Positions 3,582 to 60,853 are shown, counted from the first letter of the whole stretch. The stretch: DNA of 63,893 nucleotides, filler included, from Candidatus Desantisbacteria bacterium CG1_02_49_89 (GCA_001871075.1; 3 parts of 3 records of this genome joined end to end with filler, not necessarily neighbours in it), one strand, 5' to 3'. Notes: generated by a model from the sequence alone, not told the origin. Translations and numbers: made by a program.

Positions 3582-3751
3582 GCAGCCAGTTTTTACAGTT
3601 TACAGAGTTTACAAAGTTTATGTAGTTTACAGAGTTAAATCCGTGGACATCCGTGGCTGAGCTTATTAAATCTCTTTAAATCCCTGTTAAAAGCTTTTAC
3701 AGGGATCTTGCGAACGGGATTTAAGATACCGTCGTGCGTCATGCGTCGAGC

Positions 3752-3872
3752 GTCTTACGTAAATACCGTCGTATGTCGTAGGTCATACGTTTAAAAGATT
3801 CATGCGCACGACGCAAGACGTACGACGTTCGACGTGAAACGCACGACGTACGACTTACGACGTAAGACGGAA
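3752..3872 (+). repeat. 121-bp heptamer-rich repeat, copy 1
   Basis: Identical by eye to the reverse complement of 30219-30339. Confidence 0.9.
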
Positions 3873-8400: not shown

Positions 8401-11400
8401 TCCAAAGCGTTCGCTGACAGCTACCCTATCCTCGGCAAAAAGATAGTCATATCCGAGTGCTGGAACGAGTTCGGGGAGGGCGCGGTTGTCGAGCCCTGCG
8501 TGGAATTCGGCTTCGACATGCTGGACGCGATCAGGGAAGTTTTTGTGGATACCAACCCGCACACGGACCTGGTTCCGGCTGACATAGGCCAGTCCGTGCC
8601 CCAGTGGTTCTTCAGCTACGGGGACGGCCCGTGGTACTCGGCGATGAGAAGGGCAGCGGTCCGGCTTTCCAGCGCCGCGGCAGGTGATCTGCCTGTTACG
8701 GATACGATAACTTTCACGACTTCGCGGTCTGACACGGTAACAAGACTGACGCTTTTTTACCCGAAAGGCTGCGTGCTTACAGGCGCAAGCCTTGTTTCAG
8801 TGAAGATCGACGCTATTACCGCGGGCACGATCTCGGTAAGCACTGAGACCATAACGTTCATCGCTTCAGCGCCTGATTCGGTAAGCGCCGGGACCGGGTG
8901 CACTATTGTTATTTCCGGACTGCAGAACCCCATTAAAACAGGAGGGTATGAAGTTGTGGTTACCACTTATGATTCGAAGGCCCAGCCGGTTGACGGCTTC
9001 ACTCCCGCGACATTCACGATAACAGCCGCTCCGTTCTCTCCAAGCTCTTCCTGGCTTTTCCTTTCAAGGTCGGTTTCGGCTGACAGGACGGCTAAATGCA
9101 CGATAACCGTTGTAGTGACAGACCAGTTCAGGAACCCGATCCCCGGTAAAACCGTCCTGATAACTTCAAGCAGGGGAGCGGGTATTGATACCATAACCCA
9201 GCCTTTGTCCGTAACCGACGCAAGCGGCATGTGCACGGGTTATCTGGTTTCTTCACAGCCCGGGAAGGACACAGTAACAGCGTCCGTTAACGGGGAGATG
9301 GGCACAATACAGAACGTTGTTTTCAGGGACATATCTTTCGGCATCTGGGATTTTGAGGACACGAAAAATTATACGGCCTATGATTATTCCCAGAGCCACA
9401 ACAACGGCATTATATACGGCAACACCGCGGAAACCATCGGTTACCGGGGCGCCGCGAAATATTTTGACGGGAACGCGGACTATATAACAGTTCCTGACAA
9501 CGATTCCCTGGACCCGTTCGAGGAAATAACGGTTGAGCTGTGGTATATGACCGGCGTTACCCAGACCGACAAGTGGATGTTTAACAAGGTGCCAGGCTCA
9601 GGCAATATGGGATACAGGCTCGGGATCTCAAGCGCAAACGTCGGATGGCAGGTTGCGGGCGCATCCGCCTGGAGCTATCACCTTTACGATCCGTCTCCGG
9701 CTCCGCTGAACGCCTGGACGCATGTTGCAGCGACCTATGAAGGCAATACAATGCTGCTCTACGTGAACGGCGTAAAGGTCAGTTCGCTTTCAAGGCCTGA
9801 ATACGGGATATATCCGTCCAGCATTCCTTTATACCTGGGAACATGGGCGCCGGGTAACGCATTCTACACAGGATGCCTTGACGAAATAAGGTTCTACAAC
9901 AAGGCGCTGACAGCCGACGAGATACTGCTCAGCTATCAGGGAAAGGCAAAACCGGTCATTTTCACCGGCGTTGAATCAAAGATAAAGATAACATCCCCGC
10001 CCAGGTCGGTGAAGCAGGGCAATATTTCGGATGTAATACTGTTCGAGGTCCAGGACAACATAGGGCAGAAGGTGAGTTATTTTACCAATACCGTCACACT
10101 CTCCGTTTCCTCGTCCACCGGAAGGTTCTCCCAGGACGGTTCAAGCTGGAGTTCCTCGAATACTTCGGTCATCTACGCGAATGAAGGTTCCGGGTATTTC
10201 TACTTCCGGGACACAAGCGCGGGCAGCCCCGCTGTCACGGTCTCAAGGTCCGGGCTTTCGCCCGACACGCAGGTTGAAAGCGTCAGCGCCGCATCAGTTT
10301 CAGAGACCCTGTCCTTCCTCAGGCTTAACGATGCAAAGATACCTGCCAACGGCACAACGGTCAGCACTATAACGATCTATGTAAAGGACATAGCGGGGTC
10401 CGCGTTATACGGAAGGCAGGTCACGGTTTACACAAGCCGCGGCCCTGTTATTGACACGGTAACACAGCCGTCCCTGACCAATGCGTCAGGCATATGCTAT
10501 GCGGCGATAAGATCGTCAACCGCAGGCCAGGATACGATAACCGCGAGATGCGAAGGCGTGACTATTACTGAAAATATCCTTAACAACCCGTCTTTTGAGG
10601 ACGGGACATCGGCACCAAGCAGCTGGGCGCTGAACATTTTATCAGGCGCATCGTGGGGATGGGACACAACAACGGTTTACAGCGGCGCGAGGAGCGTGCG
10701 CATTTCCGAGACTGCTACAGCCCAGGACAATTACGCGGAGGCAAACTGGGCCGGAACAACATACAACAACAGGTGGGACATAGACCCCGGATCTTCGTTC
10801 ACCGTGTCGCAATACCTGAGAACAGACCTGGCCTCGGATTACGCAGGCATGCGGATCGTATGGTGGAACGGGGGGACATACGCGGGCGAGGTGAACGCCG
10901 ACACCAGGACAGGGGTAAATCCCTGGACCCTGCTGCAAAAAACAGTTACCGCGCCCTCGAACGCGAACGGGCTGATGTTCCGCTGCGACAACAAAGGGGT
11001 GGGCACTGCGTGGTTTGACGCGGTCCGGGTTAAAAGGACCCCGACCATGGAATTTCTTGCCGCCGAGAAACTCGCAATAATCACTCCGGTCCGCGCGACC
11101 ATCGCCAATTCGGCTTCCGAGTCGATCTGCATCCAGGCGCAGTGGGGCACAGGGACAAAAGCGGGTTCATACAGCGGGTTCTGCGCTCTTTCTTCCTCGT
11201 CAGGCCTGGGGAAATTCAGCGTTTCAAAATACGCGCCCGCGAACAGCTGGACTTCCGCGATCACGGTAAAGATAATAAGCGGAGAGACCTTTGTGTACTA
11301 CAGGGACACGCTTAAAGGTTCGCCCGCGATATACGTTACGAGCACGGAGCTTTCAGGCACAAACCAGCCCGGCCATTCCGTAGGCGTCGGTCCGTTCTCG

Positions 11401-14400
11401 GAGACAAGGTCTTACGTGGTGATGCCGAGAACAGGGTACGCGAACGGCACCCAGTATACGGTGAGCGTTTACGTGACCGATTACTGGAGGAACCCGCGGT
11501 CCGGGGAGAGCGTGGCCATTACAACGTCCCGAAAGGGAACAGCCGAGAGCGGGTATGACACTGTGCAGCAGCCCGCGACAAAGACGTTCGATAACGGCAA
11601 ATGCACGGGAAAAATATGGTCCACACTGGTCGGCATAGACACGGTAACCGCGTATGTATCGGGGCAGCCCTTAAAAAGGATCACGAATACGATCTTCTCC
11701 GACCTGGGCGGGGGCGCGTGGAACTTTGACGAGGGCACAGGTTCTTCCGCGGCTGACGTTACCGGGAACGCGAACAACGGAACTTTCTACAATTCCCTGT
11801 GGGAGGACGGGGTTATCGGCAAGGCAGCGCGCACGGTTGACGGTTCAAGATATGTTTCCGTGCCTGACGACAGCACGCTTGATTTTTCAAAGGCCCTGAC
11901 AATGGAGGTGTGGGCCAAGATATACGACGGGAACGGCGGGCAGACCATAATGAGGAAAGAGCTCGCGTATTATTTGCGCAGGGACGAGATCGCGGAAGGC
12001 CCTGACTTCACCGCTTTTGTGTATACGACCGGGTGGGAACCAAGGGTGCCCAGCAACTTCATGCCGGATTCAGGCACTAACGCGTCATGGTACCACGTAA
12101 CTGCTACCTATGATAACGACACTCCGGCAAACCAGCTTAAGATATACGTCAACGGCGTGCTGCAGAACCAGATATCCAAGTCGGGAAACGTGAACATCAC
12201 CTCCAATGAGCTCTTTATGGGGATGAGCGGCTGCATGGACGAGGCGCGCGTCTACGGCGCGGCGCTGACCCCGGAGGAGATCTACGCGAGCTACACGGGG
12301 GCTTCCAAACCTATAACATTCTCGCTTCCCGCAAAACTGACGATCACCACTCCGCAGAGGGAGGTGAAACAGAACAATCCCTCGGATTACATCACGGTTG
12401 AGGCGCAGGACGACACCGGGAACATTGTAGCCGTATTCAATGAAAGCATCACGCTTGCCTGTTCTTCCACGACAGGAAGGTTCTCGCTTGACAGGGTCAG
12501 CTGGTCCGCTTCAAACAACACATTTATATACCTCGTGAACGGCACAAGGGATTTTTATTTCAAGGACACTGTTATAAACAGCCCGGTCATCACGGTTTCG
12601 CGTTCCGGCCTGCAATTCGATACTCAGGTGGTGATCGTTACCCAGTCATCCGTGTCCGGAACGCTCTCCTATATCCGCGTGGATGTCAACAACGTGAAGA
12701 TCCCAAGGGACGGCGTAACCCTTTGTACCTTTACCATTTCCGTCAGGGACATGGACGGCGGGACCCCGCTCTCTGGCAAACAGGTTACGGTCTACACCGC
12801 GCGCGGCCTTGGCATAGACACGGTCACGCAGCCGCAGCTCACTGATCTTAACGGGTTATGCACTGCCGCCGTCGTTTCCACGACCGCCGGCGGCGATACA
12901 ATATTCGCGGTGTGCGACGGGGTAACGATCACTGAGAACATAATCAACAATATGTCTTTTGAACAGGGCACGGGGGCATATCCTGACGGGTGGGGCGTTA
13001 ACGCGAATACCTGGACATGGGTCACCGATGTGGTTTACAGCGGCGCGAAAGCAATGAGAAATTTTTCCGACGCTGTAACCGACCAGTTTGTTGAGGCGCA
13101 GTGGACAGGGACTCCTTATTTTAACCGATGGCCCGTGCATCCGAGCACTGTTTTTGTTGCCAATCAGTGGACAAGATCCGATCTTTCAAGCGGGGACGCG
13201 CGTATAAGGATAATATGGTTTAACGGCGGGTCTGTGATAGGAGAGGTAGCCGCGGCTCAGATATGGGGCACCCAGCCCTGGACACTGCTTTCCGGGACCC
13301 TGACTTCCCCTGCAAATGCGGACGGGCTTATGTACCGCGCTCATAACGCCGGCCTGGGGACAGCGTGGTTTGACTGCATACGCCTGCAAAGATACCCGAT
13401 GGTGGAATTCACGGCTGCGGGAAAGCTTGCCATAATAACTCAGCCCAGGCAGGTTAATGCGGGCAGCGTTTCCGAATCAATAGTGATACAGGCGCAGTAT
13501 CTGGGTGGCACAAAAGACTCGTCTTACAACGGGACCTGCACCCTTGTGTCTTCGTCAGGCATGGGATTTTTCAGTACCAGCTCAACAGGATGGGGAGAAA
13601 CATCCACGATCATACTGGACATTGTGAACGGCGAAACGTATTTCTATTACAGGGACACCAAAGCCGGTTCACCGGTCATCACTGTCACAAGTCCCGACCT
13701 TAACTCCTGCACACAGGCGCAGTCCGTGTACCCGGGCCAGTTCTCCGAGACAGCTTCGTTTATAATGCTGCCCAGGGAAGCGATCGCCGTGGACACATCC
13801 GTGTGCACGGTCACCATCTACGTTATGGACTGTTACAGGAACACGATCAGCGGACAGCAGATAATAATAACCACAAGCAGGATGGGCACACCGCAGGGGA
13901 TCTATGACACAATAACGCAGCCGTCCTCAGTATCCGATACATTTGGGACCTGCACCGGAACGCTTGTCTCGACCCTTTCCGGTTACGACACCGTGACCGC
14001 TTATATACCGGGCTACAGTTCAAGGCGCGTTAAAAATAATATATTCAGGGACATAGCCACGTGGGTTACGAATTTCGACGAGGGGTCGGGGAGCTCCGCG
14101 AACAGCATTTCGCCGTACGGCGGCACAGCTTCCGTTGCGGGCGGCGCGCAGTGGACCCCTGACTGTAAATTCGGTTCGTCTATCTATTTTAACGGTTCTT
14201 CCGCTTACGCGCAGTCAGCTGATCAGGACATATACGACACCACGCCCATGTCCTTTGAAATGTGGATAAAGACCGACGTAGTGCAGGGCGACAAGCAGCT
14301 CATAAACCGCATTACGAGCGGAGATCAAGGGTGGAGGACCACTGTTTCGGGCCAGAATGTCAATTTTCAGATGCCTGTGACCAGCTGGTCGCATTCGCTC

Positions 14401-17400
14401 GGAAGCTCCATAACTTTCAATTACGGTGAATGGTCCCACGTGTGCGGCACATACGACGGTGCGAATATGTGCCTTTACATAAACGGCAGCCCTGCCGGGC
14501 AGCTCGCCAGGACAGGCGGGTGCACGAATTCGGGACAGCAGCTGAACATTGCCTGCTACAGCCCGGGCGGAGCCGCGTTCAACGGCTGGATTGACGAGAT
14601 CAGGATCTACCGCGATGCGCTGACCGCTGTTGAGGCGCAGCAGAGCTGGATGGGCGAGGCAAAACCAATTTATTTTGTCAGCTATGCCTCAAAACTGGAA
14701 TTCATAACTCCTCCCAGGACGACCAGCGCGTGCGTAAAGTCAGAGTCGATAGCCGTGGAGGCGCAGGACGGTTCCGGCAATAAAACTAATTTTTCCGAGA
14801 TGATAGACATAGCGTCTTCTTCTTCATCCGGAAAGTTCTCTCCTGACGGGGTCAGCTGGAGCAGTTCGAATAACACCTCGATAATGATGGCGGACGGCTC
14901 AATGTTTTTCTACTACATTGACACGACCGCAGGCAACCCTGTAATTACCGTTTCGCGCGTTGAACTTGCTTCTGACACGCAGGTTGAGACGATCACGCTG
15001 TCTCCGGCTGTCGCTGAAACGAACTCCTACCTGCGAACGAACACCGCCACCATCCCCGCGAACGGCGCCGCGCCCTGCTCTGTGAACATAGTGATCAAGG
15101 ACATTTACGGCAACGGGCTGTTCGGCAAGCAGGCCACGGTCTATACGTCGAGGGGATCTTCGTTTGACACGATAACCCAGCCGTCCCTGACGGATATTAA
15201 CGGCTTATGCACAGCGCTTATAGTTTCCTGCACACAGGGCAGCGATACGATCACAGCGTTGTGCGACGGAGTTACGATCACCGAAAACATAGCGAACAAC
15301 CCGTCTATGGAGAACGGATCAGGAGATCCTTCTGACTGGTACTACAATACCGCTTCAGGAGTTTTCTCCTGGGTGGCGGACGACGCTGCTTCAGGGATAA
15401 GGTCCATAAGGCATTACTGCCCCACCAATGCGGATAATTTCGCTTATATAAACTGGCCGGGAGCCCCGATATGGGGCAGGTACCCGGTAACCCCCAATAC
15501 TCCTTACATCTTCAGCCAGTATTCGAAAATAAGTTCTGCAAGCGATACCATGGTCATCAGGCTTATCTGGTGGAACAATTCAAATTATATCACCGAGGGT
15601 TATTACGCTAGCCTCGGGAACGGACCAGCCGGATGGACAAAGATATCCGGCACAACTAACGTTCCAGCCGGCGCGAACATGGTTGAATACAGGGCAATGC
15701 ACAACGGCACTGAAACTGCCTGGTTTGACTGTGTGCGCATCCAGAGGGTTCCCACAATTGATTTCTACGGGGCCACACAGATCGCTTTCGCCACGCCGGC
15801 CAGGGCTTTTTCAGCTGGCAGCGTGTCAGATTCCATCTGCATCCAGGCGCAGTTCCCTGACGGAACAAAAGACTTAAGCTACAACGGCGCCTGTTCCCTT
15901 GTTTCGACTTCCGGACTCGGAACTATTTCGGATACGAACGCGGGCGGCGGCACATGGTATTCCGGAGCTGTCACGCTGAACCTGAAGAACGGAGAAACCG
16001 TTGTTTTTTACAGGGACATAAAAGCAGGTTCGCCGATCCTGGCCCTTTCAGCTGCAGGGCTTACAGGCAATACCCAGGCGCAGTCTGTTTCTGCGCTTGG
16101 TTTTTCCGAGACAGTCTCTTACCTTGTCATAAAACAGAGGCTGATACCTGCGGATAATTCATCTGCCTGCACAATTACGGTTACGGTTACCGATTACTAC
16201 CGCAACCCGCTTTCAGGCCAGGCAGTGATAATTACGACAAGCAGGAAGGGCACAGGGCTGGACGCTTATGACTTCATAACCCAGCCCGGCATTACCGATC
16301 CAAGCGGCGTGTGCACAGGCGCAGTGGTTTCCAGTTACGGCGGCCTGGATACGATCACAGCGTATATTGAGGGGAATTCCGTAAAACGCGTGGAAAATAC
16401 CGTGCTGGCGGACGGCCTTATAGGGATGTGGAACTTTGACGATGGATCAGGAGATGTTGCTTACGACCTTTCGATCAACAATAACACCGGCACGATAACC
16501 AGCCCTTCCTGGACAAACGGGTTGCTGGGCCCCTGCCTTTCGGTTAACGGCACTACCGGATATGTAAGCGTGGAGAATAACGCGACGCTGAACCCCGGAG
16601 CCGCGATCTCAGTGGAAGCGTGGGTAAAAATGAACGCGAATGACAACTATGCCGAAATCGTGCGTAAAGAACCCTGCTATTTTATGCGCAAGACCAGCAT
16701 AGGTGAAGGCAACAATTTCAATTTCTTTATCTGCACCGGCGGCGGCTGGGAACCCAGGGCTGCTTCAAGCCTTATTCCGGATTCAGGGCCCAATGCTCCC
16801 TGGTACCATATTGTCGGGACTTATGACAGCAGTATTGGCGGGAATAACAACAAATTATATATTGACGGAGCCGTTGACGGTTCATCCGCGAAAACAGGTC
16901 CTATTGATTCAAGCGCGAATCCTCTGAGGATCGGAGGCCTGGGAGCGATCTGGAACGGTGTGATGGACGAAGTGAGGATGTATAGCCGCGCGCTTCCCCT
17001 GGACGAGATCAAGGCGGGTTATGAGCGCAAGCCCAAGCCCGTAACGTTTACCGGTATGAATTTAAAGATCCTGACGCCGCAAAGGACCGCGGCGCAGGGC
17101 GCAGCCACTGATTCAATAACGGTAGAGGTCCAGGGTCTGGGCGGAGGCAGGGATGTAAGCTTCTATGATACGGTCATCCTCTCAAGCAGTTCGCCGGGCG
17201 GCAGCTTCTCAATAGACAATATTGTATGGGCTGATACCACGAACATATACCTTTCATCCGGCTACGGGGTATTCTACTACAAAGACACCAATATAGGCAA
17301 TCCCGTGATAACCGCTTATCGCGAATCGCTTATCGCAGATACTCAAGGCGAAACAATAACAGCAGGGGGAGCGGGATACTTCAGTTTCATCAGCCCAGAA

Positions 17401-18369
17401 TTCAGAATACGGGCTGCTGATACATCACCGCTCGTAACAGCGGTCGCTTATGATTCAGGCGGGAACACTGACGTTTCGTTCAGCAGCACGGTAAGTTTAT
17501 TCACAAGCTCCAGTTCCGGGTCCTTCTCAGTGTCAACAACTCCATGGGCAGATACAAGCACGATCACGTTCCTTAATGGCTTCGGCTATTTCTACTACCG
17601 CGACAACGCTGTCGGTAATCCTGTGCTATCAGCTATGAGCTATGAGCTATCAGCTGACACACAGGTAGAAACAATAACTATACGGTACCTGCGATTCTCA
17701 AACACAACACCGTTCACCATAACAAGCATAAGTACCGCTCCGGTGTTCTTAAAAGCAGTAGATGGTTCTGGGAATACAGCGGTTCTCTTTAATGATACGG
17801 TCCAACTGCTTACCACATCAACAAAAGGTTATTTCTCCGTGTCAGGCACTACCTGGGTAAACACAAGCATCGTGTACCTCGTATCCGGCGGAAAGACCGT
17901 ATACTACAAAGACAAGATAGGCGGTAACCCTGTCATAACCGTGACCAGGACAGATTCCTGGACATGGACAGACACTCAACAGGAGACGGTTACAAAGCCA
18001 ACCGTTCTAACTTCTAAGGTTCAAATGAACGTTCGTTCAGGAGAAACAGGTTCAATGCCTATGAAATTCTGGGTTTCTGACACTGTTGAATACACTGTTT
18101 ACATTTCAAACACAGGCACAGAAACCGCGACAAACAACCTTATCGTTGACACAAGGTCTTTTGATACCAGCGTCAATAATCCTGTTGACTACATTTATAT
18201 GGACACTTCAGGTTTTGCTGACACCTGGGCATACACAACAGACCTTGTTTCCTGGACAACAGGCAATCCTGCTTCAGGCACTTCCAATGTCAAAGGCCTG
18301 CGCTGGAGAATAGATAGTCTTGGCATAAATCAAACCAAAGCCATAAGGTTCAGAGTAAGAGTGAAATAA
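5469..18369 (+). CDS. Giant (~4,300 aa) secreted modular protein: GH99-like/WbsX-type catalytic domain, 4 LamG domains, 4 CBM4/9-like domains, many Ig/invasin-like repeats, DUF11-like C-terminus. Apparent +1 frameshift at ~5571.
   Basis: ORF 5563-18369. GH99-like motifs VGVYYFPGW, PLLGWY, FCLLWANH, PGWDN, WNEFGEG (~7580-8545). LamG motifs W.FDEG...W.HV..TYD...LYVNG...DE.R.Y..AL. NPSFE..WFD.V modules. The signal peptide MKKSLSFFILGLL.. starts at 5469 in another frame. Confidence 0.8.
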
Positions 18370-18842: not shown

Positions 18843-19017
18843 AAAGCGTGTCAACGTATCAGCGTGTCAACGTATCAGCGCAGTAACAAGGATTTTTATT
18901 GTAACTCAGGGCTTCAGCCCTGATAAGCAGTTTAAATCCCGCTCGAAGATCCCTGTTGAAAATTATTTATCCATGGTAATCCGTGGCTAAAATATTTTAC
19001 AAAAAGGAGCATATGTT

Positions 19018-30103: not shown

Positions 30104-30218
30104 TGCACGAAAGCACTCCGCCCGTCTTTAAGCGGGCGAGACTTCGCCCATCTAAAAGGATGGGCGAGGAAAGCACGAAAAAAGACTTTTTCACAGGGAA
30201 CTTCGAAAGAGATTTAGA

Positions 30219-30339
30219 TTCCGTCTTACGTCGTAAGTCGTACGTCGTGCGTTTCACGTCGAACGTCGTACGTCTTGCGTCGTGCGCATGAATCTTTTAA
30301 ACGTATGACCTACGACATACGACGGTATTTACGTAAGAC
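30219..30339 (-). repeat. 121-bp heptamer-rich repeat, copy 2
   Basis: Inverted copy of 3752-3872. Confidence 0.9.
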
Positions 30340-30570
30340 ACTCGACACTAGACAAACGACTGTATTTTAAATCCCGCTCGAAGATCCCTGTAAAAGATTT
30401 TTTCAGGGCTAAAGCCCTGAGTTACCTTCTGTGTATTCAGTGATCTCAGTGGCAAAACCGTGTTAACCTGCCTGCCCGCCGCAGCTGGTCGTGCTTACAG
30501 GAGAACCCACAAATGGCGTAGGAGGGTGTTCACCTGTGGTTAAAAATGTTTTTTAGAGGAGGAATTCTTT

Positions 30571-31488: not shown

Positions 31489-31588
31489 NNNNNNNNNNNN
31501 NNNNNNNNNNNNNNNNNNNNNNNNNNNNNNNNTTAATTAATTAANNNNNNNNNNNNNNNNNNNNNNNNNNNNNNNNNNNNNNNNNNNN
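31489..31588. other. Artificial contig linker
   Basis: N-run + TTAATTAATTAA (stops in six frames) + N-run. Confidence 0.97.
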
Positions 31589-33750: not shown

Positions 33751-35376
33751 TCACTTTAATTTTGACATTTTCAAAGAAGACCTGACACGTTTGCTTTTAT
33801 TATTTATTTTTTTAGCTGCTTCTTTAGCTACGATTCTTACACATTCATCCGAATCATTTTTTATAGTATAATTTAAATGTTTTAACACAGATTTATCGCC
33901 AATATTGCCAAGAACCTCTGCAACAACCAACCTGGTAGAATCCTTCCAATCCTTTAATGCTTTAATTAGAAATGGGATTGCTGCTGGACCGATATTGTAT
34001 ATAGCTGTGGATATACTGATCTCGACTGATACATCTTTATGATTTAAGGCATTAATTAGCGCCGGGACGGCATCTTTTGCTTCTGGGCCAATTTTACCTA
34101 AGGCTTCAGCAGCGTACATTTTGTTTGTTCTTTCTTCATCCTGTAATAGCTCGACTAATTCTGGGACTGCGTCTTTTGCGGCAGAGCCAATTTTACCTAA
34201 GGCGAAAGCGGCATCACTTCTAACATCACCAACATCTTCGTATTCAGGCTTATGTTTTAATGCTTCAATTAACATTGGAACTGCGTCTTTTGCGGCAGGA
34301 CCAATATACCCTAATGCTATAATATAATCTTTACAATCTCTTATATCCTTATTCTCATACTCGTTTTTTAATGCTTCAACTAATACCGGGACTGCGTCTT
34401 TTGCTGTTGGACCAATTTTGCCTAATGCTCTTGCAGCGCTTTTTCTGACATCAGAATCTTCATATTCGTTTTTTAATACTTTGATTAACGCTGGGATTGT
34501 ACCTTTTACCTCAGAACCAATGTTACCTAATGCTTCAGCAGCATATTGTTTAACATTCCCATACTCATAATTTAATACGTTTATTAACGCCGGGACGGCA
34601 TCTTTTGCTTCTGGGCCAATTTTACCTAAAGCCTTAGCAGCTTCACTTATGACTTCTTCATCACTGTCATCTTCATTTTTCAATGCTTCAATCAACACAG
34701 GAATCACGGATTTGTCGCGCATTTTTCCAAGGGCTTCGGCAGCGCTGGATCTGACCCACTCTTCCTCATCCTTTAATGCTTCAATCAGCGCAGGGATTGC
34801 AGATGGATCGCCGATTTCACCCAAAGCATATACTACCATCCGCCTAAAATTTTCCTTATCTTTCAATAACTCGATCAACGCTGGAACTGCATCTTTTGCG
34901 CCAATGTCGGCCAAGGCTTCTGCGGCACATCCTATAACAAAATGATCTTTATCCTTTAATGCCTCTATCAACACTAGCTTTGCATCACTTGCTCTAATTT
35001 TACCTAAAGTTTTAGCAGCAAATCCTCTGGCATCCCCGCTCTCCTGTTCATCTTTTAATATTTTAATAAATGATGAAGTTATATCATTTGGTACAGACCA
35101 AATATTTCTTAAAGCAATAGCGGCAACCATCCTGACAATATAATTTTTATCTTTACATGCTTCAAGCAACACTGGGCGTGCGTAAAAACCAATACGACTC
35201 AAAGCTCGGGTAATACTATCTATAACATCTTCGTTATAATTATCTTTCCTTAATACTTCTTGCAAAATAGGAATAATGGAAGTATTACCCCATTCTTTTA
35301 AAGAATCAGCAGCTTCAATTACAATCTCAGGTACCTCGCTATTAAGTGCTTTTATAATATCTTCTTTTTGTTTCAT
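33751..35376 (-). CDS. HEAT/PBS-lyase repeat protein
   Basis: About 14 repeats of AA.ALGKIGP.AKDAVP.LI..L. AT-rich. Confidence 0.92.
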   Translation of the reverse strand: MKQKEDIIKALNSEVPEIVIEAADSLKEWGNTSIIPILQEVLRKDNYNEDVIDSITRALSRIGFYARPVLLEACKDKNYIVRMVAAIALRNIWSVPNDITSSFIKILKDEQESGDARGFAAKTLGKIRASDAKLVLIEALKDKDHFVIGCAAEALADIGAKDAVPALIELLKDKENFRRMVVYALGEIGDPSAIPALIEALKDEEEWVRSSAAEALGKMRDKSVIPVLIEALKNEDDSDEEVISEAAKALGKIGPEAKDAVPALINVLNYEYGNVKQYAAEALGNIGSEVKGTIPALIKVLKNEYEDSDVRKSAARALGKIGPTAKDAVPVLVEALKNEYENKDIRDCKDYIIALGYIGPAAKDAVPMLIEALKHKPEYEDVGDVRSDAAFALGKIGSAAKDAVPELVELLQDEERTNKMYAAEALGKIGPEAKDAVPALINALNHKDVSVEISISTAIYNIGPAAIPFLIKALKDWKDSTRLVVAEVLGNIGDKSVLKHLNYTIKNDSDECVRIVAKEAAKKINNKSKRVRSSLKMSKLK

Positions 35377-38120: not shown

Positions 38121-38289
38121 TAAAAGCTCCGTTTAACCACAGGTGAACACTGCAATACTTTCTTTTACAGGGATTCAGCGGGATTTAAACTACAATATTC
38201 TCAGTTTTTTGAATCTCTTTCGTAAGATCCCTGCAAAAAGCCTTTTTCGTGCTTTCGTGGCACTTTCGTGATTTCGTGGAAATCTGTGG

Positions 38290-41926: not shown

Positions 41927-42102
41927 CCAACCTCCGGAAGATGCTAGATCCTAGATCCTGGATCCTAGATCCTGGATGAAGGAGTTTATTTTAATAATTC
42001 CTTAATCTAGGATCTAACATCCCCGCCCTGAAACCTTAGGGCGAGGCTCGCCCAGGCATAGGCCATGGGCGGCAGCATCCAGGATCTGCATTTAGCGATA
42101 AG

Positions 42103-45209: not shown

Positions 45210-45263
45210 ATTTTGGTATTTTTTCGTGATTTCGTGGTACTTTCGTGTTTTCGTGGAAATCAG

Positions 45264-48007: not shown

Positions 48008-48490
48008 TTATTTCGTACTTTCCTCGCCCATCCTTTCCAGGTGGGCGAAGTCTCGCCCGCTGTAAGACGGACGGAGTGATTTCGTGGAAATCAGTAATTC
48101 TCTTTTATTTTTGCCTAAGATCTCAATTTTTATTCTAACGCATTCCGCCGGCAGCAGTTCTTTCAGCCTTTCCGCCCATTCGATGACCGCTGCGCCGTCA
48201 CCGTAAAAAAATTCTTCATATCCCAGCGCGCGGACATCATCCGTGCTGTTAAGGCGGTACAGGTCAAAGTGGTAAAGAGGTATCCTGCCCTTGTATATGC
48301 TCATGAGCACGAACGTGGGACTTATTACCTTGCCTTTGACACCCAGGCCTTTTGCCAGGCCCTGGATGAACGTGGTCTTGCCGCTTCCGAGGCTCCCTGT
48401 CAGGCAGAGTATATCGCCGGCTTTCAGTTTTTTAGCAAAGCCCTTAGCAAATTTTTGTGTTTCTTTCGCACTGTTTGTTATTATTTTCAT
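48008..48490 (-). CDS. tsaE: tRNA t6A biosynthesis ATPase TsaE, with a repeat-derived C-terminal tail
   Basis: G.LGSGKTTF, SPTF, HFDLYRL, IEW. Confidence 0.96.
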   Translation of the reverse strand: MKIITNSAKETQKFAKGFAKKLKAGDILCLTGSLGSGKTTFIQGLAKGLGVKGKVISPTFVLMSIYKGRIPLYHFDLYRLNSTDDVRALGYEEFFYGDGAAVIEWAERLKELLPAECVRIKIEILGKNKRELLISTKSLRPSYSGRDFAHLERMGEESTK

Positions 48491-49421: not shown

Positions 49422-50567
49422 TTAAAAGTGCGAGAAGCCTAAATTTTTAGCGGTTCTCTTTCTGCCCTTATTGTCAATGATAAAAAGACTTTTGTCTTTT
49501 ATGATCTCGCCGACTGCCGTAACAGGAGTGCCGGTCAATCTTGGCACCAATGCCAGGACCTTCTTTAATTTAGCCGGCGGGACAGTGAAAACAAGCTCGT
49601 AATCCTCACCGCCTGTCAGTACTAACTTACGACTTACGACGTACGACGTACGACGGATAAGTTGCTCTGAAACAGGGATCATGTCTTCATGGATCTTGGC
49701 GCCTGTGCCGGATTCCTGGCAGATGAACCCAACCGAAGCAAGAAGCCCGTCGCTTGAATCTATCATTGCGGTTGCCAGCTTGTTCTTAGCGATTATCCCC
49801 GCCTCTTTTACTCTTGGGCTTGGCATTAAATGCCTTTTTATAAGATATTCGTGGTTTTGGCGATGCACGATGCACGATGCACGATGAACGGTTTTTTTAA
49901 GGAGCTCAAAGCCAGCCGCGGAGTCGCCGCAGGACCCTGTTACGCAGATCATATCTCCGGGCCTGGCACCCTTGCGCAGAAGAAGGTTCTTCTTTTCAAC
50001 TTCGCCGATCACGGTCGTATCTATTATTAAAGAATCCGATTTGCTGATATCACCGCCGATAACCTGAACGCCTTTACTGCAATGGGACAGTCCCTCCCGA
50101 TGACCATCGGGATGGGACAGTCCCTGACCTGCGGCGTTCATCCCGCGGTATAGATCATCTATGAATCCAACGTCTTCTTTACCTGTCAATCCCAGCGTTA
50201 CAAGCGCGTATTTTGGCTTCCCGCCCATTGAAGCGATGTCGCTCATGTTTACAGCCATCACCTTCCATCCTAACATGAACCCGTACGACGTACGACCCGC
50301 AAGGGCGACGTACGACGGCAAACGGGCAAGGAAATGCACGCCCTCAATAAGGATATCGGTAGTCCAAAGTAAACATTTACCGCGGGAAATTGGAATAACG
50401 GCAGTATCATCGCCAATTCCGATCAAACCACGTGTAACGTGCCCGCTCCGATTTATATCGGGGCGAGGTCTCGCCCCGACTGACGTCGGGGCGGATAACG
50501 TGTTACGTGTAACGCGGCTACGGATGCGGTCAATGAGCCCAAATTCCCCTAAATCCTTGATTTTCAT
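49422..50567 (-). CDS. thiL: Thiamine-monophosphate kinase, with five repeat-derived inserts
   Basis: GEFGLI, GIGDD.A, TTD.L.EGVHF, N.SDIA.MGG.P, IGGD, DSSDGL, GGEDYEL.FT. Confidence 0.96.
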   Translation of the reverse strand: MKIKDLGEFGLIDRIRSRVTRNTLSAPTSVGARPRPDINRSGHVTRGLIGIGDDTAVIPISRGKCLLWTTDILIEGVHFLARLPSYVALAGRTSYGFMLGWKVMAVNMSDIASMGGKPKYALVTLGLTGKEDVGFIDDLYRGMNAAGQGLSHPDGHREGLSHCSKGVQVIGGDISKSDSLIIDTTVIGEVEKKNLLLRKGARPGDMICVTGSCGDSAAGFELLKKTVHRASCIVHRQNHEYLIKRHLMPSPRVKEAGIIAKNKLATAMIDSSDGLLASVGFICQESGTGAKIHEDMIPVSEQLIRRTSYVVSRKLVLTGGEDYELVFTVPPAKLKKVLALVPRLTGTPVTAVGEIIKDKSLFIIDNKGRKRTAKNLGFSHF

Positions 50568-50635
50568 ACGAGTTTAACCACAGGTTAACACAGTTTAACA
50601 CAGTTTAGATACATCAGGGCTGAAGCCCTGAGTTA

Positions 50636-50689
50636 TCCGCCCCGATGTCAGTCGGGGCGAGACCTCGCCCCGATATAAATCGGGGCGGG
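50636..50689 (+). mobile_element. Double-hairpin micro-element, family A. Other copies: 30117-30168, 42022-42072, 48023-48075, 50442-50495, 56973-57024, 60766-60812.
   Basis: Consensus TCCGCCC-x-GGGCGAGACYTCGCCC-y-GGGCGRG. Empty target visible at 18845-18925 (reverse). Confidence 0.8.
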
Positions 50690-50748
50690 CAATAAAATTC
50701 CTTGTTGTTGCGTTGACACGTTGATACGTTGACACGCTGACACTGCAT

Positions 50749-56951: not shown

Positions 56952-57157
56952 ACAAGATTTCCACGAAATCACTCCGCCCGTCTTTCAGCGGGCGAGACTT
57001 CGCCCACCTGAAAGGATGGGCGAGGAAAGCACGAAAAGATTCAGCCACGGATTTCCACGGATTTCAACTTTGTATATAAACTTGTGTACTTGTAAGCTAT
57101 ATTTAAATTTCAACTTTTAAAATTTACAATTTGAAATTTGCAATTTGCAATGTTTTC

Positions 57158-58336: not shown

Positions 58337-58436
58337 NNNNNNNNNNNNNNNNNNNNNNNNNNNNNNNNNNNNNNNNNNNNTTAATTAATTAANNNNNNNN
58401 NNNNNNNNNNNNNNNNNNNNNNNNNNNNNNNNNNNN
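58337..58436. other. Artificial contig linker
   Basis: N-run + TTAATTAATTAA + N-run. Confidence 0.97.
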
Positions 58437-60666: not shown

Positions 60667-60853
60667 AATTTCTCCATATATTCAATTATGAATTATGAGT
60701 TATGAATGAAGGAATCAGGGCTCCCTCCCAACAAGATTGGCGGGTCTTCGAGAAGCCCTGAGTTATCCGCCCCGATGTCCATCGGGGCGAGACCTCGCCC
60801 CAAAGGGGCGGGCAATAGATTCCTTGCAGTTGCGTTGATACATTGACACGCAT

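Follow-up and report, generated by a model that had tools for sequence, protein, structure and literature searches.

What is the short double hairpin that lies both within and beside thiL in Candidatus Desantisbacteria bacterium CG1_02_49_89 (GCA_001871075.1), and how did it come to be there? The locus belongs to a stretch of 63,893 nt that was analyzed at its full length (hereafter, the window), and the element in question follows the skeleton TCCGCCC-x-GGGCGAGACYTCGCCC-y-GGGCGRG, in which x and y are loop segments. We found the element to be a discrete unit with exact boundaries, which is present or absent at otherwise identical sites and leaves no duplicated bases. We tentatively regard it, at somewhat below an even chance, as a miniature element resembling REPINs (doublets of repetitive extragenic palindromic (REP) sequences forming hairpins), whose folded single strand would be mobilized in trans by an HUH Y1 nuclease of the RAYT (REP-associated tyrosine transposase) class.

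The window comprises three contigs of one metagenome-assembled genome (MAG), i.e., C21 (1–31488), C22 (31589–58336), and C32 (58437–63893). The N/TTAATTAATTAA linkers at 31489–31588 and 58337–58436 are artificial joins, so distances across them are meaningless. The genome originates from groundwater/aquifer samples and consists of 2,481,651 bases in 150 contigs, with 48.9% G+C and a completeness of 93.5%. It is phylogenetically isolated: of 30 comparison genomes, one (G001) is from the same order, and the others share the domain only. Contig labels preceded by G000 refer to the genome under study.

Copy Number and Anatomy of the Double Hairpin

A search with the exact skeleton (CCGCCC-N3-24-GGGCGAGACYTCGCCC-N3-24-GGGCG) returned 43 + 48 = 91 matches in the genome, compared to 0 + 0 for the reversed pattern used as a control. 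When one to two substitutions per arm were allowed, this regular expression identified 129 loci in 2.48 Mb. A genome-wide covariance search, as proposed in an earlier note made from the window sequence alone, was based on a model of seven window copies and gave at least 150 matches (both strands counted). These are essentially the same loci plus variants with a 1-nt linker, of which the genome holds five copies. The earlier note had claimed seven copies in the window; the six it listed are present at their coordinates, and the seventh is a variant at 42022–42073.

50636–50689, + strand: A-type copy of 54 nt, flanked by the thiL start and the scpB end, at GAGTTA^CAATAA; fold of −24.8 kcal/mol, z −7.2
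50442–50495, − strand: A-type copy of 54 nt (18 codons), in frame in thiL, at ACGTTA^CACGTT within a heptamer array
60766–60812, + strand: A-type copy of 47 nt with a short second loop (CAAAG), at GAGTTA^CAATAG
30117–30168, + strand: B-type copy of 52 nt with centre GAGACTTC and right arm GGGCGAG, inside an CACGAAAN octamer array
48023–48075, − strand: B-type copy of 53 nt inside an octamer array
56973–57024, + strand: B-type copy of 52 nt inside an octamer array
42022–42073, + strand: variant with a 1-nt linker, CCCGCCC..GGGCGAG-G-CTCGCCC..GGGCGGC

Element lengths range from 45 to 68 nt, the commonest being 52 nt (38 copies), 54 nt (35), and 47 nt (22). The left arm reads TCCGCCC in 115/129 copies, the centre GGGCGAGACCTCGCCC in 71/129 and GGGCGAGACTTCGCCC in 33/129, and the right arm GGGCGGG in 73/129 and GGGCGAG in 35/129. 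The inner segments are variable, with 59 different versions of x and 68 of y, yet their self-complementarity is kept, as the earlier note had seen in the window copies. Mean Watson–Crick stem extension amounts to 2.58 (x) and 2.35 (y), compared to 0.39 and 0.35 in shuffles (highest shuffle 0.64), and the first extension pair occurs as C–G, G–C, A–T, and T–A. Given varied loops with kept pairing, the hairpin structure is under constraint. Single-stranded DNA folding of five window copies yielded −17.6 to −24.8 kcal/mol with z-scores from −3.1 to −7.2. Three of them form two side-by-side hairpins, and two (50636 and 56973) form one long hairpin with paired outer arms and the central palindrome at its tip. 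From the arms and these alternative folds it follows that the element is an inverted dimer of a G+C-rich hairpin unit, T-CCGCCC-loop-GGGCGAG and CTCGCCC-loop-GGGCGRG, joined by a 2-nt spacer. Rfam gave no family match for the element (only a spurious mir-1784 match, which scored 28.5 bits where the gathering score is 98) and was also blank for copies in other genomes, and the core 16-mer had no match in the literature searched.

Filled and Empty Sites

The targets of the window copies and their empty counterparts are as follows:

50614–50635, + strand: REP-like hairpin TCAGGGCTGAAGCCCTGAGTTA, whose foot is the A1 target; on the opposite strand, the cut lies inside G^TAAC
18845–18925, − strand: empty paralogue of the A1 context, with the junction between 18902 and 18901
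38245–38285, − strand: element-free GATTTCCACGAAATCAC^GAAAG.. octamer array, an empty B target
45222–45262, − strand: element-free octamer array (CACGAAAN type), an empty B target

The empty site on the minus strand (18925–18845) reads ...CAGGGCTGAAGCCCTGAGTTA^CAATAAAAATCC and is the unfilled form of the contexts at 50614–50745 and 60752–60850. The insertion point GTTA^CA that the earlier note had derived from this comparison is correct, as are its placement of the thiL copy in ACGTTA^CACG and of a second subfamily (30117, 48023, and 56973) with two empty arrays. Genome-wide, 51/129 copies have an empty paralogue, meaning that the 14 nt to the left and the 14 nt to the right, when joined, recur elsewhere with ≤3 mismatches. 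Zero-mismatch empty sites were found in three families (A1, F, and a B chimera), namely GAAGCCCTGAGTTA^CAATAAAATTCCTT, ACAAGTCAAAAGTC^AAATTGTAAAATGT, and TTCCACGAAATCAC^GAAAGTATCACGAA. Where C[AG]AT follows the REP-like hairpin TCAGGGCTRAAGCCCTGAGTTA, 12 sites are filled and 46 are empty, with diverse outer sequence on both sides, and two copies occupy the loop of another palindrome (GCAAACCTT^TAGGTTTGC), of which 12 empty paralogues exist. Target types include REP feet, REP loops, tandem arrays, and coding sequence. Arrays of at least two NACGAAAN units number 110 in the genome, 11 of which adjoin an element.

At non-array sites, zero bases are duplicated at the junctions, in line with the earlier claim that target duplication is absent. 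Flanking direct repeats (≤2 mismatches) of 7 nt accompany 29/129 copies and those of 8 nt accompany 40/129, because any cut within a tandem 7- or 8-mer array yields them. We considered a true 7-/8-bp target duplication and rejected it, as these repeats are confined to copies in tandem arrays. The fixed-length target-site duplication of classical (DDE) miniature inverted-repeat transposable elements is accordingly absent outside such arrays. Identity among the 29 B copies with a length of 52 nt is 96.9%; in their flanks it is 92/87% at 1–8 nt, 66% at 9–16 nt, and ~27% further out. As homology stops ~16 nt outside the element, these copies were not carried on larger duplicated segments, the origin that the earlier note had set against its own reading.

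Flank preference is weak (YTW^CAA; among 94 distinct flank pairs, T(−2) in 57, C(+1) in 46, and A(+2) in 57). The orientation of the element relative to the short target is fixed, with TCCGCCC beside ..TTA and GGGCGGG beside CA.... The possibility that loops encode the target was also tried and rejected: the longest loop–target common substring averages 4.44 compared to 4.46 in permutations, and substrings of at least 6 occur in 8 cases against 12.8 expected.

These sites bear directly on the possibility that the element spreads without any transposase, by replication template switching or short-patch gene conversion between the many short repeats, through which the palindrome is copied or deleted, its boundaries being set by the hairpin or cruciform itself. 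Repeat-to-repeat recombination of this kind is a live rival to the HUH reading, albeit one we consider somewhat unlikely. It would account for the shuffling of hairpin modules, since one x loop occurs with different y loops and an A-type first hairpin with B flanks in four copies. Half and single-hairpin versions in contexts identical to those of the full element, intergenic regions built as mosaics of short modules, and the failure of any cognate enzyme to turn up speak for it as well. The same applies to the thiL copy and its intergenic neighbor, which form a unique inverted pair 140 nt apart: the arms at 50440–50499 and 50632–50691 (60 nt) are 97% complementary with two mismatches, the number that the earlier note had given, and their loop versions occur in these two copies only, genome-wide. 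However, no direct repeat that could serve for slippage is common to filled and empty sites at the ends of the element. Orientation is fixed although the thiL site and the REP site have only ~6 nt of flank in common, and the 29 B copies, unrelated beyond 16 nt, look like a burst from a single source.

In-Frame Copies in Protein Genes

According to simple ORF calls, ORFs contain 37 copies, another 5 overlap an ORF end, and 87 are intergenic. The length is a multiple of three in 27/37 copies inside ORFs compared to 17/87 intergenic ones, and in-frame gene copies are mostly 54 nt long (18 aa). ORF-internal copies of other lengths lie near ORF ends, and those ORF calls are therefore probably over-extended. 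A Pfam scan of 21 element-carrying ORFs gave family matches for 17, and at least 10 housekeeping genes carry an in-frame copy, with Pfam domains flanking or split by the element in several of them:

49422–50567, − strand (window): thiL ORF, 381 aa, reading through the element, with Pfam AIRS and AIRS_C downstream of the insert
Further ORFs with flanking or interrupted domains: an aconitase-family protein; DnaE (between the HHH_6 domain and the OB fold); a B12-binding radical-SAM protein; fumarate hydratase; D-Ala-D-Ala ligase (ddl); HisF; a pyridine-nucleotide disulphide oxidoreductase; PurL; and a cytidylyltransferase

Compared to solved homologues, ThiL has ~27 extra residues at the element (query 18–51 against chain 18–24) and HisF has 62 (query 147–210 against chain 135–136), the HisF insert combining the double hairpin with heptamer arrays and a further small palindrome. 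In G001, DnaE is 65% identical, and the sole gap of at least 5 aa (residues 924–938) coincides with the element, while HisF is ~80% identical on both sides and lacks the entire insert. A purL orthologue was not found in G001 with the query used. A metagenome scan with ThiL returned the same strain, with 4 mismatches and no gaps over 11,143 nt, a homologue with 52% identity (L075), and more distant homologues. The L075 gene has no double hairpin at the site; it carries (CAACCAT)n arrays at the same N-terminal site and (CTGTACC)n arrays at a second shared site (L075:900–1200). Judging by these orthologous sequences, the gene copies are insertions.

Within thiL, in-frame tandem 7-mer arrays lie at window positions 49629–49655 and 50428–50520, and their units differ from those in L075. 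Heptamer direct repeats of a similar kind are described for Beggiatoaceae and cyanobacteria in the available portion of PMC4679880.

In-frame copies matter for annotation, as they are easily taken for lineage-specific loops. Furthermore, those in dnaE, thiL, hisF, purL, and ddl show the insertion tolerance of essential enzymes.

Genomic Position and Orientation

Copies are mostly located just after gene ends. Behind gene ends, 20 B copies are in sense and 8 in antisense orientation, whereas A1 and A2 composites are mostly antisense, which fits an orientation inherited from the mosaic unit. Taking all copies with co-directional genes together, 33 are sense and 39 antisense. Three of the four tRNA-Ser genes (GGA, GCT, and TGA) have a long-loop double hairpin directly against their first base, while the fourth (CGA, contig C24) has a different hairpin pair. 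This leader arrangement was found in none of five other genomes (0/5), i.e., G001 and four others. The long-loop copies before tRNA-Ser genes are:

G000:C81:19599–19662
G000:C109:284–348
G000:C142:about 1170–1237

This distribution invites the explanation that the element is a non-mobile selected motif, such as an RNA 3′ stabilizer or terminator or a protein-binding site, which was multiplied together with neighboring sequence. The location past gene ends, the sense bias of the B copies, the conserved hairpin pairing, and the long-loop versions before tRNA-Ser genes, which would be transcribed as a leader, are all compatible with such a role. Nevertheless, we consider it very unlikely: homology ends 16 nt outside the element, filled and empty sites are otherwise identical, the in-frame copies in at least 10 housekeeping genes are absent from orthologues, and neither an overall orientation preference nor an Rfam match was seen.

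Behind two further double hairpins (G000:C81:19388–19600 and G000:C113:3752–3950), the sequence continues into a tRNA-Ser 5′ part (GGAGAG.TGGCCGAG.GG), followed by ~80–100 nt of common sequence (..ACGGGTGGAAGA..CAGAGCAC.CAGGA..). In C113, this fragment is followed by a tRNA-Ser(TGA)-like anticodon arm. ARAGORN made no call for the tRNA-Ser-like fragments on C81 and C113, and they had no Rfam match.

Occurrence in Other Genomes and Samples

The exact skeleton was absent from all comparison genomes (0/30). A scan of one genome per species revealed 17 stretches in 8 other genomes, comprising two Elusimicrobia MAGs (6 and 5 copies), three genomes of Omnitrophota, and one each of Sedimentisphaerales and Bacteroidota, in addition to an unclassified genome. 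With the covariance model, four carrier genomes gave 11, 11, 7, and 9 matches (both strands counted) and G001 gave none. The Elusimicrobia forms are minimal (38 nt, with tri- to tetranucleotide loops) and adjoin octamer arrays, and in Omnitrophota, some copies show co-varied arms (CCGCCA/TGGCG) and are located within long ORFs. Among 2.9 million viral contigs, no match was found. The same arms across phyla suggest, on the sequences compared, either horizontal spread or a conserved recognizing factor.

Such a factor could be an enzyme of another class, such as a recombinase (tyrosine or serine), a Y2 rolling-circle enzyme, or one of unknown class, which recognizes the four conserved arms. Recognition of this kind would explain why the arms recur across phyla, and no Y1 gene adjoins a copy in the carrier genomes. 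We still consider this explanation quite unlikely, as no candidate gene was found in a search that did not extend to the Y2, integrase, and resolvase families. In addition, neither TnpB nor IS110 was detected in the genome, which speaks at the same time for the RAYT reading, and reverse transcriptase gave only one match.

Candidate Mobilizing Enzymes

Ten Y1_Tnp matches were identified in the genome, and eight full-length proteins were scanned. One is an IS200 transposase (C83), whose hairpins are different from the element; three are RAYTs above the NCBIfam cut-off (two on C23 and one on C13); and the remaining four fall slightly short of it. With at least seven RAYT-like genes in the genome, a mechanism based on an HUH single-strand nuclease appears plausible. 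The RAYT and RAYT-like genes are:

G000:C23:1740–4257 (L116): two 163-aa RAYT genes, 99.6 and 94.6 bits against NF047646
G000:C80:12739–13752 (L005): RAYT-like protein of 337 aa, just below the RAYT cut-off, with a C-terminal match to the DnaA DNA-binding end
G000:C13, C100, C38, and C114 (L002, L003, L004, and L006): four RAYT-like genes of 222–239 aa with their own bracketing inverted repeats (..GGGGACGG.. or ..GGGACAG..)

The reading we prefer, mobilization of a REPIN-like element by a RAYT-class enzyme, would proceed as follows. The element would be a REP dimer, a discrete non-coding insert able to form either a pair of hairpins or a single long one. Its folded single strand would be cut and rejoined in trans by a RAYT-class Y1 enzyme of this genome or by a cognate enzyme outside the assembly, through strand transfer of the kind proposed to build the mosaics of REP sequences and bacterial interspersed mosaic elements (BIMEs). 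Landing sites would be the feet and loops of other palindromic repeats, the borders between 7-/8-mer array units, and occasionally genes, without any base being duplicated; in genes, only stop-free copies with a length that is a multiple of three would survive. Both the single-stranded intermediate and the enzyme are inferred.

Several results speak for this scenario, among them the discrete insert with its empty paralogues and element-free orthologues, the sharp loss of homology around the B copies, and the constrained structure with its stable folds. The enzyme class is not only present in the genome but unusually abundant. Both C23 RAYT genes are surrounded by arrayed GTAACTCAGRCCTTYAGGYCTGA REPs, and the foot of this hairpin family serves as the A1 target. 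Of 94 distinct flank pairs, 31 have an A^C junction, i.e., G^TAR on the opposite strand, and for A1 and A2 it reads G^TAAC or G^TAGG on that strand, at the 5′ foot of the REP hairpin. According to the accessible part of PMC3479197, the Escherichia coli RAYT binds the 5′ GTAG of REP, cleaves single-stranded REP DNA, and transfers strands.

Other results weigh against it. The nearest copy lies 2155 nt from any of the 10 Y1 matches, and a CGCCC..GGGCG hairpin occurs within ~1.5 kb of 0/25 Y1 loci (8 in this genome and 17 in four carrier genomes). A nuclease or transposase gene flanked by copies, as envisaged in the earlier note, is thus not among them, although a cognate gene may be missing from a MAG that is 93.5% complete. 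Each Y1 gene has its own, other flanking inverted repeats, and among the half-version matches, none showed left and right element halves separated by a gene. The element ends at the hairpin feet, so that an internal guide or subterminal cleavage sites of the IS608 kind would find no space. Conservation of the target is weak, with TTA^CA at 18, CTA^CG at 8, and CAC^GA at 36 (all B copies) of 129 junctions, and the E. coli enzyme, again in the accessible part of PMC3479197, cuts at CT and not within the GTAG tag. Element orientation agrees with local GC skew in 56/121 cases (p = 0.47), a weak test because skew tracks the coding strand (r = 0.94). Finally, 23 DNA runs contain the stretch, all in the form of contigs, and those of four runs were checked for polymorphism; they end at repeats, no contig bridges an element, and the apparent joints have sides of ≤38 nt that match paralogues. 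The earlier note's conclusion that precise insertion without duplication points to a single-strand, HUH-like mechanism or to repeat-to-repeat recombination is supported as regards the discrete, precise insert; as regards an HUH-like mechanism, it is plausible.

A further explanation dispenses with a dedicated transposon enzyme. A structure-directed activity, either replication as such or a host enzyme of the HUH or repair type, may move a four-arm element that can adopt a hairpin pair, a long hairpin, or a cloverleaf. Shared by Elusimicrobia, Omnitrophota, and this lineage, it might also build the intergenic mosaics and the 7-/8-mer arrays that recur at the same gene positions in relatives. 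We rate this as unlikely; if true, it would have run away to ~130 copies here and put 18-residue inserts into essential enzymes.

Neighboring Features

Around both C23 RAYT genes, the arrays consist of GTAACTCA[GA]ACCTT[CT]AGGT[CT]TGA and GTAACTCAGGGCTTTAGCCCTGAGTTAC hairpins. Y1 ORFs of 335 and 337 aa are also present in the two Elusimicrobia genomes, and the small palindrome GTCCCAAAGGGAC is frequent near double hairpins. At window position 60716–60765, a REP hairpin (CAGGGC..GCCCTG) carries a loop insert of ~32 nt (CCCTCCCAACAAGATTGGCGGGTCTTCGAGAA), and the same nested form also flanks the C23 RAYT genes and A2 copies. Its recurrence indicates that small elements are nested several levels deep. 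A 162-nt inverted repeat with 94% complementarity (3711–3872 and 30219–30380, contig C21) holds (ACGACGT)n-type arrays, and its second arm follows shortly behind B copy 30117. Within the window, the space between genes is filled by arrays of many different 7-, 8-, and 9-mers, and very large ORFs at 10000–18000 and 34000–35300 contain long internal repeats with a spacing of ~1.1–1.3 kb or ~100 nt.

Comparison with Known Systems

How very small palindromic repeats move, be they REP families without RAYT, Rickettsia palindromic elements (RPEs), or the small dispersed repeats (SDRs) of cyanobacteria, is still unsettled. RPEs are palindromic repeats that sit in frame in housekeeping genes, including dnaE, and add a short peptide; they are not known to have a mobilizing enzyme. 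The element resembles them as an in-frame palindromic insert in conserved protein genes, with 27/37 ORF copies being a multiple of three. In contrast to RPEs as they are generally described, it appears to belong to an unrelated sequence family, has an unrelated host lineage, is mostly intergenic, and is nested in repeats. SDRs, as reported by Elhai and colleagues in 2008, are said to occur also in tandem heptamer arrays and to show compensatory changes, as single units of 21–27 nt, and they are not known to have a transposase. By that description, the element differs as a dimer of 45–68 nt in a non-cyanobacterial lineage. It shares with SDRs that very small hairpin modules sit precisely inside other short repeats; SDR5, for instance, lies between the third and fourth base of HIP1, as given in the part of PMC4390886 available to us.

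Likenesses to IS200/IS605 derivatives include the lack of target duplication, hairpins at both ends, and Y1 HUH enzymes in the genome. Unlike these, the element ends at hairpin feet, has no subterminal cleavage or guide segments and no matching autonomous copy, and shows a weak flank preference where a fixed 4–5 nt target would be expected, with no strand bias detectable against GC skew (a weak test). Defining properties of REPIN–RAYT systems and of IS200/IS605 families are lacking. The four RAYT-like genes L002, L003, L004, and L006 resemble the terminal inverted repeat-associated tyrosine transposases of PMC3733652, as far as its available sections describe them.

Further parallels concern REPINs. 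In the portions of PMC3116915 and PMC3733652 at hand, REPINs consist of two hairpin units in inverted orientation, able to form a single long hairpin, as found here. Their copy numbers run from tens to hundreds, most copies lying shortly downstream of a gene, and heterodimers with different loops, intragenic copies, and insertion into small palindromes are reported. The same portion of PMC3733652 describes REP dimers with 1–2 bp spacers in Opitutus terrae and Wolbachia, intragenic REPs, REPs within other palindromes, and a REP super-family without a dedicated transposase. The element differs by having no GTAG or CGTC tag, its ends being T-CCGCCC and GGGCGRG and its centre GAGACYTC, and, unlike a REPtron, no RAYT gene is flanked by its units (10 Y1 matches checked). 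Its in-frame peptides GARPRP, RGEVSP, and RGETSP are absent from the intragenic-REP table in the available text of PMC3733652. With the CGTC-tagged REPs of that source, it shares a REP-like dimer family for which a dedicated transposase was not found, whereas tag and stem sequences differ. REPIN–RAYT systems are for the most part passed on vertically, according to the part of 10.1101/2022.05.22.493013 available, in contrast to element arms that recur in several phyla. While not a demonstrated member of any of these groups, the element works like REP dimers/REPINs, RPEs, and SDRs. Its genome offers an unusually clean case of such a system, with many 50-nt copies of exact boundaries, filled and empty pairs in several target types, and a RAYT-like gene set.

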